From: Gemmatimonadales bacterium | Lineage (GTDB): Bacteria > Gemmatimonadota > Gemmatimonadetes > Gemmatimonadales > GWC2-71-9 | Direction: 5' to 3' | Length of the DNA stretch: 64,000 nt | Assembly: GCA_035702425.1 (NCBI GenBank) | Contig: DASSQQ010000042.1 | Span: 4,605 to 68,604 of the forward strand | Shown: piece after piece, positions 7,878-59,186 of the stretch | Layout: each line of letters starts with the position of its first letter | Position numbering within the stretch: position 1 is the stretch's first letter | The notes under the pieces: generated by a model | Seen by the model: the letters and a program-made list of their open reading frames with translations, nothing else | Database searches by the model: none | What the model was told of the DNA's origin: nothing | Position numbers and translations under genes: made by a program

Positions 7878-7914
7878 GGGGGGGCGGGGGGGGCGGGGGG
7901 GGCGGGGGCGAGGG
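7878..7914. repeat. G-tract simple repeat (G7-C-G8-C-G8-C-G5-C-G…) in a divergent promoter region
   Basis: Read directly from the sequence. It lies between the minus-strand gene starting at 7830 and the plus-strand gene starting at 7979. Confidence 0.8.
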
Positions 7915-9921: not shown

Positions 9922-9993
<72 letters not shown>

Positions 9994-30403: not shown

Positions 30404-30771
30404 TCCGCCGCTTTCACTTCGGTCACGAAATATTCGGTCTCGCCGAAGCAGGAGGTGGGGACGCCCTTGTGCTGGTGGTAGGTGAGCGCCACCCGTTTGC
30501 CCATCGAGGCGCTGACCAGGGCGGCGGCGGAATCGTCGCGCACCGTGAAGTAGAACGTCTCCGGCATGGCGCCGGGGAGGTTCACCATCGCGAGCTCGCC
30601 TTCCCAGGTCTTGCAGAGGAATCCCTTGCGCGAAAACTTCTGCACGTACCCCACCCGCTGGCCCACTGAATAACTCCAGGTGAGCGCGGACCAGGTGTAG
30701 AGACAGAACGCGAGGACCGGCGCGGCGATGACGCCTGCGATGATGAGCTTGGCTTTGCGGGAGAGGGTCAC
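30400..30771 (-). CDS. small N-terminally anchored membrane protein, translationally coupled to acnA
   Basis: 123 aa with one TM (LIIAGVIAAPVLAFCLY). Its stop overlaps the acnA ATG (ATGA). Confidence 0.5.
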
Positions 30772-30782
30772 GGGGGGAAGCT

Positions 30783-30863
30783 AATTGCGGATTGTTGATT
30801 GCGGAATGCGGATTGTCTACCTCCTGGCAGAATCCGCAATCCCCAAGCCGCCATCCGCAATTC
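30783..30863. repeat. ~80-bp imperfect palindromic element built from GCGGATT / AATCCGC heptamer units (copy A)
   Basis: AATTGCGGATTG…ATTGCGGAATGCGGATTG-(15 nt)-AATCCGCAATCC…CATCCGCAATT. It is intergenic between the GNAT stop and the small membrane protein. It shares 12-mers GAATGCGGATTG and AATCCGCAATCC with copy B at 58552-58627. Confidence 0.75.
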
Positions 30864-31362
30864 ACTCTACGTCATACTCCTCCTTCTTGTACTCGACGAA
30901 CCCCCGCGCCTTGTAGTTGGGGAGCGCGTGGGGATGGTCGAGCGTGCAGGTGTGGAGCCAGACCCGCGACGGCGCGAGGGCCCAGGCGTCCCGCACCGCG
31001 CAGGAGAGCAGGTGCTTGCCCAGCCCCTTGCCGATCGAGCCCGGCGCGAGCCCGAAGTACGCCACTTCCACCGAATCGTCCGAAGAGATCCGCTTCAGCT
31101 CGTACCAGCCCGCGAGCGCGCCGTTCACTTCCGCCACGTAGAGCGTGATCGCGGGGTCGGCCAGGTGGGTGCGGATCTGGTCGTCGGTCCAGTCCCAGCG
31201 GTCCCGCCAGTGGTAGGCTTCGCCCACGGTGCGGTAGAGCCGCCGGTAGAGGGCGGGCCCCGGCTCTTCTACGCGGGCCACGCGGAATCCCGGGACCTCC
31301 CGGAACGCCGGTACGAAACGGCCGGGATCGGCCAGCTCGAGGTAGGTGCGGGTCACGCGCAT
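30862..31362 (-). CDS. GNAT-family N-acetyltransferase
   Basis: 166 aa. Acetyl-CoA-binding region LAPGSIGKGLGKHLL. Confidence 0.7.
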   Translation of the reverse strand: MRVTRTYLELADPGRFVPAFREVPGFRVARVEEPGPALYRRLYRTVGEAYHWRDRWDWTDDQIRTHLADPAITLYVAEVNGALAGWYELKRISSDDSVEVAYFGLAPGSIGKGLGKHLLSCAVRDAWALAPSRVWLHTCTLDHPHALPNYKARGFVEYKKEEYDVE

Positions 31363-31382
31363 GGGCCACTATATTTTAAGCC

Positions 31383-46382: not shown

Positions 46383-47081
46383 ATGGTCGTCCCGGTTCAG
46401 CTCCCGACTGCCCAGCGCGACGTCCAGGTGGGTGGCGTCACCTACCACGTCGAGGGTGAGCTCGTTCCCGTGCTGCACCTCGAGCTGCAGCGGATGCCGG
46501 TGTACTTCGAGCATCACATTCTGCTCTGGAAGAGTCCCGGCGTGGAGGTGGACATCAAGCCGCTCAAGGGCGCGTTCAAGCGGGTGATGGCCGGAATGCC
46601 GGTGTTTCTCACCCAGACCAAGGGCGTGGGGCACATCGCGTTTTCGCGGGACGGCGCGGGACACGTCTTCGGCATCCACCTGAAAGAGGGGCAGGCGATC
46701 GACGTGCGCGAGCATCAGTTTCTCGCGGCCACCGACAACGTCGAGTACTCCTTCGCCCGGGTGAAGGGCGTGGCCAACATGCTCTTCGGGGGGACCGGGT
46801 TCTTCATCGACACCTTCGCCTGCAAGAGCGGGAGCGAAGGCGTGGTCTGGCTCCACGGCTACGGCAACGTGTTCGAAGTAACCCTCAAGCCCGGGGACAT
46901 GATCGACGTCGAACCCGGCGGCTGGGTCTACAAGGACCCCACCGTCAGGATGGAGACCATGACCCAGAAGCTTTCCACCGGACTCTTCGGCAGCGCCGGC
47001 ATGCTGTTCTGGAACAGGTTCCACGGCCCCGGCCGGCTCGCCATTCAGTCCATGTACCTGCACCTGCCAACGGAGGCGTGA
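46383..47081 (+). CDS. AIM24/DUF124 family protein
   Basis: 232 aa with the typical AIM24 beta-rich pattern (…GGTGFFIDTF…GEGVVWLHGYGNVFEVTLKPGDMIDVEPG…). Confidence 0.65.
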   Translation: MVVPVQLPTAQRDVQVGGVTYHVEGELVPVLHLELQRMPVYFEHHILLWKSPGVEVDIKPLKGAFKRVMAGMPVFLTQTKGVGHIAFSRDGAGHVFGIHLKEGQAIDVREHQFLAATDNVEYSFARVKGVANMLFGGTGFFIDTFACKSGSEGVVWLHGYGNVFEVTLKPGDMIDVEPGGWVYKDPTVRMETMTQKLSTGLFGSAGMLFWNRFHGPGRLAIQSMYLHLPTEA

Positions 47082-47998
47082 TTTTCATGAGGCTCGACCG
47101 TCACACCCTCGCGGCGGCGTTCGCCGTCGTCACCGTGAGCGCGTTCGCGCGCCCGGCCCGCGCCCAGGGCGCGACCCGCGTCGCCATCGTGGACTCGCTC
47201 CAGACGCCGGAGTCGGTCAAGTACGACGCCGGGCGCGACATCTACTGGATCTCCAACATCAACGGCACCCCCTCCGCCAAGGACGGGAACGGATTCATCA
47301 GCAAGGTCCGTCCCGACGGCTCCATCGTGGCGCTCAGGTTCATCGAGGGCGGGAAGAACGGCGTCACCCTGAACGCGCCCAAGGGTCTCGCCCTGAAGGG
47401 CGATACGCTTTGGGTGACCGACATCGACGCCGTGCGCGCCTTCAACGCCAACACCGGCGCCCCGGTCGCTTCGGTGGACCTCTCGGCGCTGGGCGCCGTG
47501 TTCCTGAACGACCCCGCGTTCGGCCCCGACGGCGCGCTTTACGTCACCGACACCGGCATTCACATCGACGAGAAGGGGCAGTCCACCCATCCCGGACCCG
47601 ACCGCATCTTCCGGATCGCGCCCGACCGCAAGGTGACGGTCGCCGCCGAGGGTGCCGCGCTCGAGGCGCCGAACGGCATCACCTGGGACACGGCGCACGG
47701 CCGGTTCGTGGAAGCGGGCTTCGGCGGGCCGGACGTCTTCAGCTGGAAGCCGGGGGAAAAGGCGCCCACCGCCATCGCCAAGGGGCCGGGCGGCTTCGAC
47801 GGCGTGGAGATCGTGAAGGGGCGGCTCCTGATCTCGTCGTGGGCCGACTCCACGGTGTCGGCGTACGAGACGGGAACCGAAGTGAAGATCATCACCGGGG
47901 TGCCGAGCCCGGCCGACTTCGGCTACGACGCCAGGCGGAACCGGGTCCTGATTCCCAACATGACGGCGAACCGGATGGAGATCTGGCAGCTGCCGTAA
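47078..47998 (+). CDS. beta-propeller protein (SMP-30/gluconolactonase/LRE-like), paralog 2
   Basis: Signal peptide. Paralog of 45426..46364. Its start overlaps the AIM24 stop (ATGA). Confidence 0.6.
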   Translation: MIFMRLDRHTLAAAFAVVTVSAFARPARAQGATRVAIVDSLQTPESVKYDAGRDIYWISNINGTPSAKDGNGFISKVRPDGSIVALRFIEGGKNGVTLNAPKGLALKGDTLWVTDIDAVRAFNANTGAPVASVDLSALGAVFLNDPAFGPDGALYVTDTGIHIDEKGQSTHPGPDRIFRIAPDRKVTVAAEGAALEAPNGITWDTAHGRFVEAGFGGPDVFSWKPGEKAPTAIAKGPGGFDGVEIVKGRLLISSWADSTVSAYETGTEVKIITGVPSPADFGYDARRNRVLIPNMTANRMEIWQLP

Positions 47999-48053
47999 GC
48001 GAACGGCGTGGTGCGTGGGGCGCGGGCATCCGTCCGCCCCACCCACCACGCCT

Positions 48054-49130
48054 TCACCCGCCTGCTTCAGGTTCTTGCTGCGTCAGGCAGTGGATCGTCC
48101 CCAGCCCCCAAACCAGGTCCACGGCGTGAATCCCCACCACCGGCCGGTCCGGAAAGACTTCGGCCAGAATCCCTAACGCCTCCCGGTCCTTCGGGTCGTT
48201 GAAGGTGGGGACCAGCACCGCCGCGTTCGCGACGTAGAAATTGGCGTAGCTCGCGGGCAACCGCTGGCCGTCGAAGACGAGCGGCGCCGGCATCGGCAGG
48301 TCCACCACTTCGATTTTCGATCCGTCCTCGGTGACGAGCCCCTGCAGTCGCTCGCGGTTCTCCGCGAGTGGCGCGTAGTTCGCGTCCCGGGGGTCCGCCT
48401 CCACGCAGAGGACCACGGTGCTCGGCCCCACGAAGCGGCAGAGGTCGTCCACGTGGCCGTGGGTGTCGTCCCCCGCGATTCCCCGTCCCAGCCAGAGCAC
48501 GTTGGTGGCGCCCAGGTAGTCGCGCAACACGCTCTCCAGGTCGGTGCGCGAAAGCCCGGGGTTCCGGGTCTGCACCACCGGGTCGAGCAGGCACTCCTCG
48601 GTGGTGAGCACCGAGCCCTCGCCGTTGACGTCGATGCTCCCGCCCTCCAGCACCACCCGGCGCCCCCGCAACTCGGCGTCGAAGATCTTCCGGCGGAGCT
48701 TCTTCGCCGCGAACTCGGGGAGCTTCCGGTCCTTCTTCCAGTCCGGATACTTGGCCCAGGCGTTGAAGTGGAACCGGGAGACCGCGATTTCCGGCGCCGG
48801 CTCTCCGCGCCGCACGAAGATCGGCCCCGAATCCCGGGTCCAGCCGCGGTCGGTGGGGAAGCGGAGGAACCGGACCCGCGCGAGACTCGCCCCCGCCTTC
48901 TCGAGCACCCGCCGGGCGGCGCGCTCCTGTGCCGGCGAGCTCACCAGAATCCGCGCCGTCTCGCCTTCCGCGATCCGGCGGGTGATTTCGCCGTACACCC
49001 AGGGGATGACGGCGAGCTTCCCCGGCCAGTCGCTCGCGTTGTGGGGCCAGGCGAGCCAGGTCGCCGCGTGGGGCGCCCACTCGGCCGGCATCCGGAAACC
49101 GAGCGCGGCGGGGGTGGGGAGCACCTTCAT
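48054..49130 (-). CDS. aguA: agmatine deiminase
   Basis: Full-length member of the peptidyl-arginine-deiminase-like family, with the C-terminal catalytic Cys motif GTIHCLTQQ. Confidence 0.85.
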   Translation of the reverse strand: MKVLPTPAALGFRMPAEWAPHAATWLAWPHNASDWPGKLAVIPWVYGEITRRIAEGETARILVSSPAQERAARRVLEKAGASLARVRFLRFPTDRGWTRDSGPIFVRRGEPAPEIAVSRFHFNAWAKYPDWKKDRKLPEFAAKKLRRKIFDAELRGRRVVLEGGSIDVNGEGSVLTTEECLLDPVVQTRNPGLSRTDLESVLRDYLGATNVLWLGRGIAGDDTHGHVDDLCRFVGPSTVVLCVEADPRDANYAPLAENRERLQGLVTEDGSKIEVVDLPMPAPLVFDGQRLPASYANFYVANAAVLVPTFNDPKDREALGILAEVFPDRPVVGIHAVDLVWGLGTIHCLTQQEPEAGG

Positions 49131-50073: not shown

Positions 50074-50149
50074 AAGGAGGGAACAGTACAACCGGGAGAC
50101 GGGAGGCGGGAGACGGGCGGCGTCCCCGGCTCGCGTCTCCCGATTCCGG

Positions 50150-58108: not shown

Positions 58109-58587
58109 TGGCCTCCGAACTTCTGCGCCAGCTCGGCCAGGAGCCGCTGGGCGATCCGGTACCCGTCGCTGCCGATCGGCACCATCACCTCGAGGTCCCG
58201 CTCCGGGCGGGAGGGGTCGAGCGCCGGGCGGTACACCGGTTCGACGGTGAACCGCGCCTTCCCGGGAACGTCGGGATCGGCCCAGCAGCGGATCTTGACG
58301 GTGCTGGAGAGGTCCGCGCTCTCCGCGTTCCCGGGCGCGGACCGGTGGGTCCGGGTGTCGTACCAGGTGGTTTCGAGGAACCCGTCGGCGGGGTTCACGA
58401 ACGACACCTGCACGCCCTCGCCCGCGAAGAAACCCGTGGCCTCGGCGATGGCGCGCGCCGGCGGGGCGTTCACGATCGCCGTCAGGGCCTCGGGGTACGG
58501 CAGGAACGCGGGCCGGGTGGTGCCGGGGGCGCAGGCGGACAACAGAATGACGATTGCGGGTTGCTGAATGCGGATTGCTCGCCGCAC
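58105..58587 (-). CDS. lipoprotein of unknown function, tandem paralog 3
   Basis: Likely GTG start at 58587 giving (M)RRAIRIQQPAIVILLSAC (lipobox LSAC). The track's ATG at 58632 would make the N-terminus a translation of repeat copy B. Confidence 0.4.
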   Translation of the reverse strand: MRRAIRIQQPAIVILLSACAPGTTRPAFLPYPEALTAIVNAPPARAIAEATGFFAGEGVQVSFVNPADGFLETTWYDTRTHRSAPGNAESADLSSTVKIRCWADPDVPGKARFTVEPVYRPALDPSRPERDLEVMVPIGSDGYRIAQRLLAELAQKFGGQ

Positions 58588-58627
58588 CCGCGTGGCAATC
58601 CGCAATCCGCAATCCGAGATCCGCGAT
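58552..58627. repeat. ~76-bp imperfect palindromic element built from GCGGATT / AATCCGC heptamer units (copy B)
   Basis: GATTGCGGGTTGCTGAATGCGGATTG-(18 nt)-CAATCCGCAATCCGCAATCCGAGATCCGCGAT. It lies immediately downstream of the His-rich membrane-protein gene. Confidence 0.75.
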
Positions 58628-58628
58628 G

Positions 58629-59186
58629 TCATTGGTGCCCGTGCGCCGTGTCCGGTGGCGTTGGCTCGTCGTGGTCGTGGTCCTCGTCGGCTTCGCCCGG
58701 ATGGTGATGGTGGCCGGCTTGGCGGTCCTTGATTTCCGCTTCCATCTTGACCATCGGCACGCCCGCCGCATGGTCGAAGACCATCTCCCCGCCCAGCATG
58801 CCCACCCGCACCAGAATCGCGAGCGCGAAGAGCGAAACCACGCGCAGGATCCACTGTTCCACCCGCGGCAGCTTGCCGCGGCGCACCAGGTGCCAGACCA
58901 GAATGGCGGTGAAGATCCCCATGGTGACGAGCGCCCAGGTCTCGTGCTGGTCCATCAGCTCGTGGATGGCCTCCCCGTGCTCGATCGCGTCTTCGGCCTG
59001 GAGGCCGGCGATGACGGCGGCCCACCCGCCGACGACGCCCGCCCACAGGGTCCAGAGTCCCGCGGAGCGGATGGTTTCCCGCTTGAGGAGCCAGCCCAGC
59101 CACTCGAAGAAGACCGCGACGGTGAGCAGGGCGGCGGGGAAGTCGTTGAGCAGCGCGTGCAGCTTGGCCCAATCGTAGCCGAACAT
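58629..59186 (-). CDS. DUF2231-like 4-TM membrane protein with His-rich C-terminal tail
   Basis: Four TM segments, then …HHHHPGEADEDHDHDEPTPPDTAHGHQ. Confidence 0.55.
   Translation of the reverse strand: MFGYDWAKLHALLNDFPAALLTVAVFFEWLGWLLKRETIRSAGLWTLWAGVVGGWAAVIAGLQAEDAIEHGEAIHELMDQHETWALVTMGIFTAILVWHLVRRGKLPRVEQWILRVVSLFALAILVRVGMLGGEMVFDHAAGVPMVKMEAEIKDRQAGHHHHPGEADEDHDHDEPTPPDTAHGHQ

Follow-up and report, generated by a model that had tools for sequence, protein, structure and literature searches.

The window analysed here, a stretch of 64,000 nucleotides (nt) from a Gemmatimonadales genome (contig DASSQQ010000042.1, positions 4,605 to 68,604), carries two copies of a palindromic element made of tandem heptamers, with GCGGATT-type units in one arm and AATCCGC-type units in the other. 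The host is a soil bacterium; the window is part of a soil metagenome contig (JGI 3300006804), and a protein with 99% identity has been deposited from a Gemmatimonadales metagenome-assembled genome. Copy A occupies the whole gap between a gene for a GNAT-family acetyltransferase and a gene encoding a protein of 123 amino acids (aa), itself upstream of an aconitase gene. Copy B is found at the junction of a gene for a DUF2231 membrane protein and a lipoprotein gene. All the flanking genes are on the minus strand (Table 1). Both copies had been noticed in an earlier, sequence-only reading of this DNA, which put them right after stop codons, between genes of the same orientation; they were indeed located there, at the GNAT and DUF2231 stops, and the ends of copy B could be refined. 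We consider it well supported that these elements belong to a class of heptamer palindromes which extends across bacterial phyla and evolves in concert, the hairpin being kept.

Table 1. Coordinates of the two heptamer elements, of the neighbouring gene ends and of a third hairpin in the window (ORF, open reading frame; TRF, Tandem Repeats Finder)
Feature	Position	Strand	Basis
Copy A, whole palindromic heptamer element	30783..30863	.	sequence; minus-strand hairpin -47.9 kcal/mol, z -4.9
Copy A, G-rich arm: ATTGCGG ATTGTTG ATTGCGG AATGCGG ATTG	30784..30815	+	7-nt register; TRF period 14/7
Copy A, centre TCTACCTCCTGGCAG, non-repeat, self-pairing, caps the stem	30816..30830	.	fold
Copy A, C-rich arm: AATCCGC AATCCCC AAGCCGC CATCCGC AATTC	30831..30863	+	TRF period 7, 4.4 copies
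TGA stop of GNAT acetyltransferase gene (30862..31362), overlapping the outer edge of copy A	30862..30864	-	ORF list, gene calls
GTG start of the 123-aa gene upstream of aconitase, 11 nt past copy A	30769..30771	-	ORF list, gene calls
Copy B, whole palindromic heptamer element	58551..58628	.	sequence; hairpin -47.9 (+ strand) and -40.8 (- strand) kcal/mol
Copy B, G-rich arm: ATTGCGG GTTGCTG AATGCGG ATTGCTC	58553..58580	+	sequence, 7-nt register
Copy B, C-rich arm: AATCCGC AATCCGC AATCCGA GATCCGC	58597..58624	+	TRF period 7, 4.3 copies
ATGA overlap: TGA, stop of DUF2231 membrane-protein gene (58629..59186); ATG, likely true lipoprotein start	58629..58632	-	sequence, ORF list; in-frame orthologous starts 7/7
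Lipobox cysteine codon (LLSAC), 34 codons past the ATG	58531..58533	-	ORF list, frame analysis
Third, weaker hairpin: GGCGTGG TGCGTGG GGCGCGG ... CCGCCCC ACCCACC ACGCC	48001..48055	.	TRF; fold about -42 kcal/mol

Anatomy of the two copies

Both right-hand arms were recognized by TRF as period-7 arrays of 4.3-4.4 copies. When degenerate units are counted each arm holds about four units, not the two or three proposed earlier for the forward arm. A spacer of 15-18 nt had also been described: a short centre of 15-19 nt does exist, but most of it is self-paired and prolongs the stem. The central part of copy B is GCCGCACCCGCGTGGC, and its C-rich arm is followed by GATG on the plus strand. Folding of both strands yields a single long hairpin for each copy, of -41 to -48 kcal/mol with z scores of -2.4 to -4.9.

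Two 12-mers are exact in both copies, as the sequence-only reading had it: GAATGCGGATTG (30804-30815 in copy A, 58566-58577 in copy B) and AATCCGCAATCC, which starts at 30831 in copy A and at 58597 and 58604 in copy B. Heptamer units are what the two copies have in common; their loops and ends differ. In the window, GCGGATTG is found 10 times, where shuffled sequence gives 3.97 ± 1.93 and none of 100 shuffles reaches 10, and AATCCGCAATCC is matched with at most two mismatches 14 times against 3.67 ± 1.63. All but one of these 14 near-matches lie inside copies A and B, in strict 7-nt register, and a motif scan of the window revealed no GGAWT-periodic array beyond the two copies. The source contig of 64-70 kb carries two to three copies of the heptamer hairpin, and copy A is retained with one single-nucleotide polymorphism among near-identical metagenome contigs.

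Recurrence across phyla and independence from the unit

An exact-pattern scan for AATGCGGATTG-N10-30-AATCCGCAAT, which specifies 21 bases, was run on one genome per species (596 Gb). It returned at least 120 loci where about 6 are calculated by chance (596 Gb x 2 strands x 21 spacer lengths / 4^21). Together with the excess over shuffled sequence in the window, this takes the motif well beyond chance frequency. The 7-nt periodicity extends past the pattern in 115 of the 120 matches listed, on both flanks in 85 and on one flank in 30; about five of these matches resemble chance hits, in agreement with the expectation. The hosts among the matches listed, assigned by record titles, belong to about 13 bacterial phyla. 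Roughly 64 are Acidobacteriota (Pyrinomonadaceae, Vicinamibacterales, Blastocatellia) and the others include Desulfobacterota/delta-proteobacteria, Planctomycetota, Nitrospirota, Chloroflexota, Bacteroidota, Gemmatimonadota, Verrucomicrobiota, Latescibacterota, Binatia, Margulisiibacteriota and Spirochaetota. The pattern had no match among 72,556 plasmids or 50,697 phage records and just three in 2.9 million viral contigs. Rfam searches of the window and 18 loci at gathering score retrieved tRNAs only, and nothing credible matched copy A at E values up to 10. A literature search encountered the 14-mers of the repeat in no paper.

The heptamer itself proved to be one of many. A unit-agnostic detector, based on 7-nt periodicity and an inverted partner, found 25 period-7 arrays in about 330 kb of loci picked by protein homology and not by motif; 17 of them had an inverted partner. 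In the same loci periods 5, 6, 9, 10 and 11 gave 0-1 arrays each, and period 8 gave 10 arrays of which none was inverted. Units of the class include GGTGTCA, GGTCAGT, GAGGGAT, GGACTAC, CGTGAAT, GGAGTCT, GCAGTAA, GGGACTT and many more. The catalogue comprises 162 elements. Their median length is 83 nt, 78% of their bases are paired and the terminal loop measures about 5 nt. The mode is four units in each arm and six or more are rare, the upper bound being the informative part of this distribution since the detector needs at least three units. The G-rich arm is on the 5' side in 145 of the 152 informative elements (145 vs 7), and in 57 of 63 (57 vs 6) once the GCGGAWT type is left out; because the element is palindromic, this polarity is true of either strand. 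The repeat family listed as an option in the earlier reading is real, but this heptamer is one unit of many in a general class, whose fixed arm polarity and size had been missed.

The closest known kind is that of the inverted heptamer simple sequence repeat pairs of Xanthomonas and Nostoc, of which the elements of the window are a GG-unit version. Xanthomonas carries arrays of GGGAATC heptamers, preferentially of four units, with 70-75 convergent inverted pairs per genome in which the G-rich arm comes first (Rehm et al. 2015, PMC4692102). These pairs are over-represented between aligned ORFs, where they abut the upstream stop codon or overlap it; 83% keep the same gene context between species, with varying lengths (PMC4692102). 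They show no link to insertion sequence (IS) elements, and the authors, who found no function, favoured G-quadruplexes; in Nostoc the repeats are GGGGA(C/T)T heptamers (PMC4692102). The elements described here share with these pairs the tandem 7-nt units (period 7 being specific among periods 5-11), the two close convergent arrays with the G-rich one first (145 vs 7 in the catalogue), the size of about four units per array and the position at or overlapping the upstream stop, between aligned ORFs. The G-tracts of at least three G are what they lack: GCGGATT contains GG only. Beyond the description in Xanthomonas lie the Gemmatimonadales host, the occurrence of GCGGATT in about 13 phyla among the matches listed, the many units obeying the same rules and the presence of one copy in frame within a signal-peptide coding region.

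The GG run of the unit bears directly on the quadruplex explanation, in which four evenly spaced G-runs would form a DNA or RNA quadruplex competing with the hairpin. GG runs allow only a weak two-tetrad quadruplex. The preference for four units per arm, as in Xanthomonas, the leading position of the G-rich arm and the three to five GG runs found in the arms of most GCGGATT elements all speak for such a switch. Among elements with other units, however, 13 of 69 have no GG run in the arm and still follow the four-unit rule, so that the rationale put forward for Xanthomonas and Nostoc is weak here; besides, the adjoining complementary arm makes the hairpin by far the preferred fold (-41 to -94 kcal/mol). 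We regard a quadruplex switch as very unlikely.

An odd over-representation of heptamer repeats in bacteria has been noted since 2007, and detailed descriptions, which assign them no function, exist only for Xanthomonas, Nostoc and Beggiatoa. The cyanobacterial STRR heptamers and the TAACTGA repeats of Beggiatoaceae, Cyanobacteria and Bacteroidetes form intergenic arrays of 2-6 copies near gene ends, whose distribution across phyla is puzzling and for which no mechanism is known (PMC4679880). Unlike the elements of the window these arrays are nearly always direct and upstream of starts, with one inverted case and no paired hairpins (PMC4679880). What is new in the present data is that the same architecture, down to 21 identical specified bases, recurs in about 13 phyla among the matches listed, and that the rules of period, size and polarity are independent of sequence, the hairpin being kept as the sequence drifts. 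A curiosity becomes a testable problem, for which the necessary compensatory variants already exist in nature.

In some genomes the hairpin is the core of a larger structure. Copies with a common central loop and outer inverted repeats occur at four loci of OY969475.1, three of MAG11 and four of a delta-proteobacterial metagenome-assembled genome. At these loci the GCGGATT hairpin is nested in a longer dispersed palindrome, the outer inverted repeats being for example GTCAGAACCGCCTGCGGTAGCGGGC...GCCCGCTACCGCAGGCGGTTCTGAC, which gives it the look of a composite related to MITEs (miniature inverted-repeat transposable elements) or to REPINs, the paired form of repetitive extragenic palindromic (REP) sequences. 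Such composites, in some Acidobacteriota and delta-proteobacterial genomes, are near-identical dispersed copies with common termini, and these composite forms may therefore be mobile. A recurrent unit order was also seen at six Acidobacteriota loci (L008, L009, L046, L080, L103 and L108) and similar ones, ATTGCGG-ATTTCGG-ATTGCGG-AATGCGG ... AATCCGC-AATCCGA-AATCCGC-ATTCCGC with both arms written 5'->3'. Since this order is not mirrored, conserved periodic mismatches remain and register-shifted alternative hairpins become possible.

Evolution of the elements at orthologous loci

Locus A was compared in 80 orthologous loci with 66-75% protein identity. In most of them the two genes overlap, the GNAT stop and the 123-aa start forming GTGA, and neither spacer nor element is present. 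A scattered minority carries a heptamer hairpin at the identical junction, built of different units: GCGGAAT/ATTCCGC in L147, L148, L159, L160, L168 and L204, and GCGAAGT/ACTTCGC in L150. Two further loci (L144 and L155) keep the 3' arm alone. When seven orthologs are aligned in arm register, 89.8% of the cells pair, and both sides have changed in 10 of 28 pairs, against 2.5 ± 1.2 after shuffling (0/500) and at most one in slid controls. On the tree of the 123-aa protein, which is weak because the protein is short, carriers of copy A are patchy.

Locus B tells of longer persistence. The DNA was compared in six relatives, and a near-perfect element made of GCGGAAC was found in L208, with four exact GCGGAAC units in the G-rich arm, a folding energy of -89 to -94 kcal/mol and an ATG at the base of the stem. 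A GCGGATT element is present in L214, a decayed one in L210 and an array limited to the G-rich arm in L212; L211 and L213 are empty. Copy B persists, its arrays fresh and near-perfect, in relatives whose protein identity goes down to about 51%. Conservation as a unit in related genomes applies to copy B, which is at the orthologous position in most of them, and not to copy A with its patchy presence. Across the two loci, the unit drifts (GCGGATT, GCGGAAT, GCGGAAC, GCGAAGT), the arms stay complementary, and the element is present, absent or halved.

This drift weighs on the idea that the arrays serve as a platform for a protein, either a sequence-specific DNA binder of the iteron type or a protein covering about 7 nt of single strand, a cold-shock protein for example, which would melt the hairpin. 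The strict 7-nt periodicity and the fixed number of units speak for such a protein, and cold-shock proteins were reported to be able to bind one per heptamer in TAACTGA repeats (PMC4679880). The unit differs, however, between orthologous elements and, within one genome, between loci: locus B of L208 carries GCGGAAC, and positions 464-497 of L208 carry GCGGATT-type units. These changes argue against a sequence-specific reader, and the array of sites for one DNA-binding protein suggested by the sequence-only reading was abandoned; a protein platform in general appears highly improbable. A genome-specific unit present at all loci, as a trans-acting factor would impose, was rejected on the same observation in L208.

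Mobility could also explain a scattered distribution. The elements would then be non-autonomous, of the REP/REPIN or MITE kind, and spread by a trans-acting transposase, either a REP-associated tyrosine transposase (RAYT) or a hairpin-cutting enzyme of the IS200/IS605 type, without target duplication. As small non-coding palindromic repeats, with composite dispersed forms in some Acidobacteriota and delta-proteobacteria, they resemble MITEs and REPINs. Several genomes do hold multiple copies with a common central loop and outer inverted repeats, the operon junction of locus A looks like a site where the element is inserted or deleted, its presence there is scattered over the protein tree, and the spread across phyla is compatible with horizontal transfer. 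Against this stand the flanking direct repeats, which are no commoner than in shuffled pairings and reveal no target-site duplication; the ends, where logos of 173 termini show neither a GTAG or CGTC tag nor any conserved base outside the last unit; and copies A and B, which are alike in their units alone and not in loops or ends. No transposase link was found, plasmid, phage and viral records are almost devoid of the element, and the element at copy B is ancient and evolves in place. Spread as a mobile element is accordingly rated as quite unlikely. The terminal logos, which display a purine at -1 alone, also led to the rejection of stop codons as built-in termini and of TNA as a target.

Copy B has consequences for the lipoprotein gene. 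The lipoprotein ORF that starts at the ATG touching the DUF2231 stop reads through the whole element. In all seven loci examined the first open in-frame start is the one touching the upstream stop, at junctions reading TGAGATG, TAAATG, TGATG, ATGA or TTGA, and it is in frame with the lipobox cysteine. The distance from this start to the cysteine is 34, 40, 39, 17 and 43 codons in loci with the element and 13 and 18 in those without. In L208, whose sequence was read by hand, the stop-adjacent start is the sole canonical in-frame start upstream of the hydrophobic core. A lipobox can be recognised in 113 homologous lipoproteins. The predicted N-terminus is 28 aa or longer in 66 of them, and about 60 contain N-terminal peptides derived from the arms and followed by ...LLAAC. 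These peptides are RIADCGL from GCGGATT, SAIRNPQ from AATCCGC, SAFRIPH from ATTCCGC, and ERGTRN / FRVPxSAF from GCGGAAC/GTTCCGC.

The NCBI call for this gene (VFK78_03425) uses a TTG start at 58540-58542 and yields a product of 145 aa, 'MSAC...', devoid of a signal peptide, and is probably wrong. A proper lipoprotein signal peptide is obtained from the ATG at the upstream stop, or from an alternative GTG at 58585-58587 in the centre of copy B. The suspicion that copy B distorts the start call was justified; other gene callers read through the arms. All six frames of GCGGATT/AATCCGC are free of stop codons, as read from the sequence, and a heptamer repeat encodes the identical heptapeptide in all three frames. 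Owing to these two properties, the n-region of a signal peptide, which is cleaved off, is a tolerant home for the repeat. Copy B most likely lies in frame inside the signal-peptide coding region, and the repeat there appears to be translated as part of the signal peptide. As the units are free of stops, the elements systematically mislead gene callers, which produce false N-terminal extensions (RIADCGL, SAIRNPQ) or truncated starts.

Placement relative to genes and possible effects

The catalogued elements lie mostly between co-directional genes (111), with 12 in convergent and 24 in divergent contexts, the baseline gaps numbering 445, 106 and 104 respectively; 13 of the 24 divergent elements represent one orthologous site. 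In 79 of 135 elements the upstream gene's stop codon has its end no more than 10 nt from the 5' edge, on either side, and in 16 more this end falls inside the element. The next start codon follows at a median of 18 nt, and Shine-Dalgarno-like sequences are often found just outside the stem.

A strong G+C-rich hairpin directly 3' of stop codons evokes a Rho-independent terminator, which the sequence-only reading had listed among its options. A related hairpin in the window, at 48001-48055, has the same G-arm-first polarity as copies A and B and spans exactly the gap between two convergent ORF stops (47078..47998 on the plus strand, 48054..49130 on the minus strand). The canonical signature is nonetheless missing: a TTTT within 12 nt downstream accompanies 5 of 110 elements in sense and 9 of 110 in antisense orientation, and copies A and B have no U-tract after the stem. 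Most elements are internal to operons, the next start following about 18 nt later; convergent contexts, with 12 of 147 elements and 106 of 655 baseline gaps, show no enrichment, and copy B is inside an ORF. Termination of this kind is the least probable of the explanations considered and hardly credible.

The nearest functional analogue is the REP element of Escherichia coli, and on the strength of this analogy the heptamer elements may well work like REPs. REPs and the related bacterial interspersed mosaic elements are likewise imperfect palindromes of 3' untranslated regions and intercistronic gaps, often at most 15 nt from the stop codon, and their locations vary between strains. According to Liang 2015, as relayed in PMC12306157, REP hairpins of E. 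coli that lie fewer than 16 nt away from a stop codon cause ribosomes to stall and reduce upstream translation. REP325 stabilises the upstream mRNA and partly terminates transcription. REPs are, however, 20-40 nt long, have no tandem heptamers and bear a GTAG/CGTC tag read by RAYT transposases, whereas the window elements measure about 80 nt and are untagged; size and tag exclude them from REP membership. From the earlier suggestion of a REP- or MITE-like family there remain a repeat family and a REP-like placement, without target-site duplication or tag.

The reading we prefer, tentatively and with somewhat less than even confidence, is that of a slippage-built palindrome acting in a REP-like manner at cistron junctions. 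Arrays would grow and homogenise through replication slippage, and the arms would be kept complementary by hairpin-templated correction from arm to arm, by selection for the hairpin, or by both. The element would persist and evolve in place, with occasional gain or loss. Transcribed within operons, it would form a stem of about 30 bp in the RNA, with its 5' foot on the upstream stop codon and its 3' foot immediately ahead of, or within, the next gene's start. If the analogy with E. coli REPs closer than 16 nt to a stop holds, such a hairpin would most likely tune the junction of neighbouring cistrons: it might hinder the terminating ribosome and could block 3' exonucleases. At copy B, the hairpin would bury the lipoprotein start codon, and lipoprotein synthesis would then depend entirely on ribosomes that come from the upstream gene and translate through the stop-free repeat, an enforced form of translational coupling. 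The anatomy, distribution and placement of the elements, the covariation of their arms and the in-frame position of copy B are what the data show; the slippage origin and the REP-like effect on expression are inferred.

Several observations weigh against this REP-like reading. Gene contexts were taken from a crude ORF caller, with the elements masked. A mechanism centred on the stop codon is inapplicable to the hairpin at 7101-7140 of L057, between two tRNA genes of a seven-tRNA cluster, and to the elements that sit between divergent start codons. The abutment on stop and start codons could reflect the growth of arrays up to constrained sequence, and the complementarity of the arms could be kept by non-selective template switching. 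Copy A, being patchy in close relatives, is not essential there. At the RNA level no asymmetry emerges: the sense strand is the more stable in 55 elements and the antisense in 53, G-U pairs number 184 and 191 respectively, and orientation relative to transcription has a weak bias (37 vs 20). Selection specific to one RNA strand was rejected on these grounds.

The same facts feed a strong rival, according to which the elements are functionless by-products, slippage arrays mirrored by fold-back or template switching and tolerated where they do no harm, in short gaps, in the cleaved n-region of a signal peptide or in tRNA spacers; hairpin and stop-free units would make them harmless and not useful. 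The strand symmetry, the occupation of every kind of gap, the half, decayed and missing elements at orthologous loci, the many unrelated units and the absence of stops in all six frames of GCGGATT/AATCCGC are all in its favour. It accounts less well for the narrow size rule of about four units per arm and for the near-universal G-first polarity, including the 57 vs 6 outside the searched unit type, both of which need some constraint. The persistence of copy B, with its fresh near-perfect arrays, at protein identities as low as about 51% and the identical 21 bases in about 13 phyla among the matches listed are also contrary to it. A functionless element is on balance doubtful, though it must be taken seriously.

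The exact period of seven, the size of four units and the G-first polarity are accounted for by none of these explanations. For the polarity, candidates are fold-back of a G-rich nascent strand, a synthesis resembling telomere fusion, or avoidance of C-rich RNA exposed to Rho. These rules could mean that heptamer palindromes are a distinct class of genome elements made or read by a dedicated mechanism, a view that we find unlikely. It would take the unit-independent rules as its signature, namely a period of exactly 7, about four units per arm and a concerted change of all units in both arms, together with a G-rich arm that is 5' on either strand, as in the geometry of a head-to-head telomere fusion. 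One option would be that repeats are synthesized on a template, with fold-back at DNA ends or at stalled forks. The other would be a conserved partner with a 7-nt footprint, for which cold-shock proteins, RNase III or an avoidance of Rho come into question. On this view of a dedicated mechanism the elements would switch operon polarity and translational coupling conditionally. Elements inside ORFs, like copy B, could also act as frameshift-prone switches, since 7 mod 3 is 1.

Some placements deserve separate mention. Heptamer hairpins adjoin or separate tRNA genes at six further loci (L012, L056, L068, L096, L105 and L114), and in L096 a whole tRNA gene is flanked by the two arms. A hairpin of GGTGTCA, GGTGCTA or GCTATCG units lies between the divergent starts of the GNAT gene and its neighbour in many orthologous loci (among them L133, L152, L166, L186, L191, L201 and L206), about 600 nt upstream of the 123-aa gene and about 10 nt from each ATG. 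It is flanked by apparent -10 boxes of leaderless genes arranged face to face. In the window the corresponding site, 31363-31382, is empty, with 19-20 nt between the starts. A role of the unit TGACACC as a -35 box in this divergent-promoter family was considered and dropped, as orthologs carry TAGCACC or CGATAGC there.

Three other features of the window were recorded. The tRNA gene at 9922-9993 is its sole Rfam match at the gathering threshold. A G-rich tandem tract, GGGGGGGCG repeated 3.4 times, is located at 7878-7914 (31-37 nt, G about 80% or more). At 50092-50140, a (CGGGAGA)n array of period 7 with 3.6 copies is followed by a partly complementary segment, with a folding energy of -37.5 kcal/mol.

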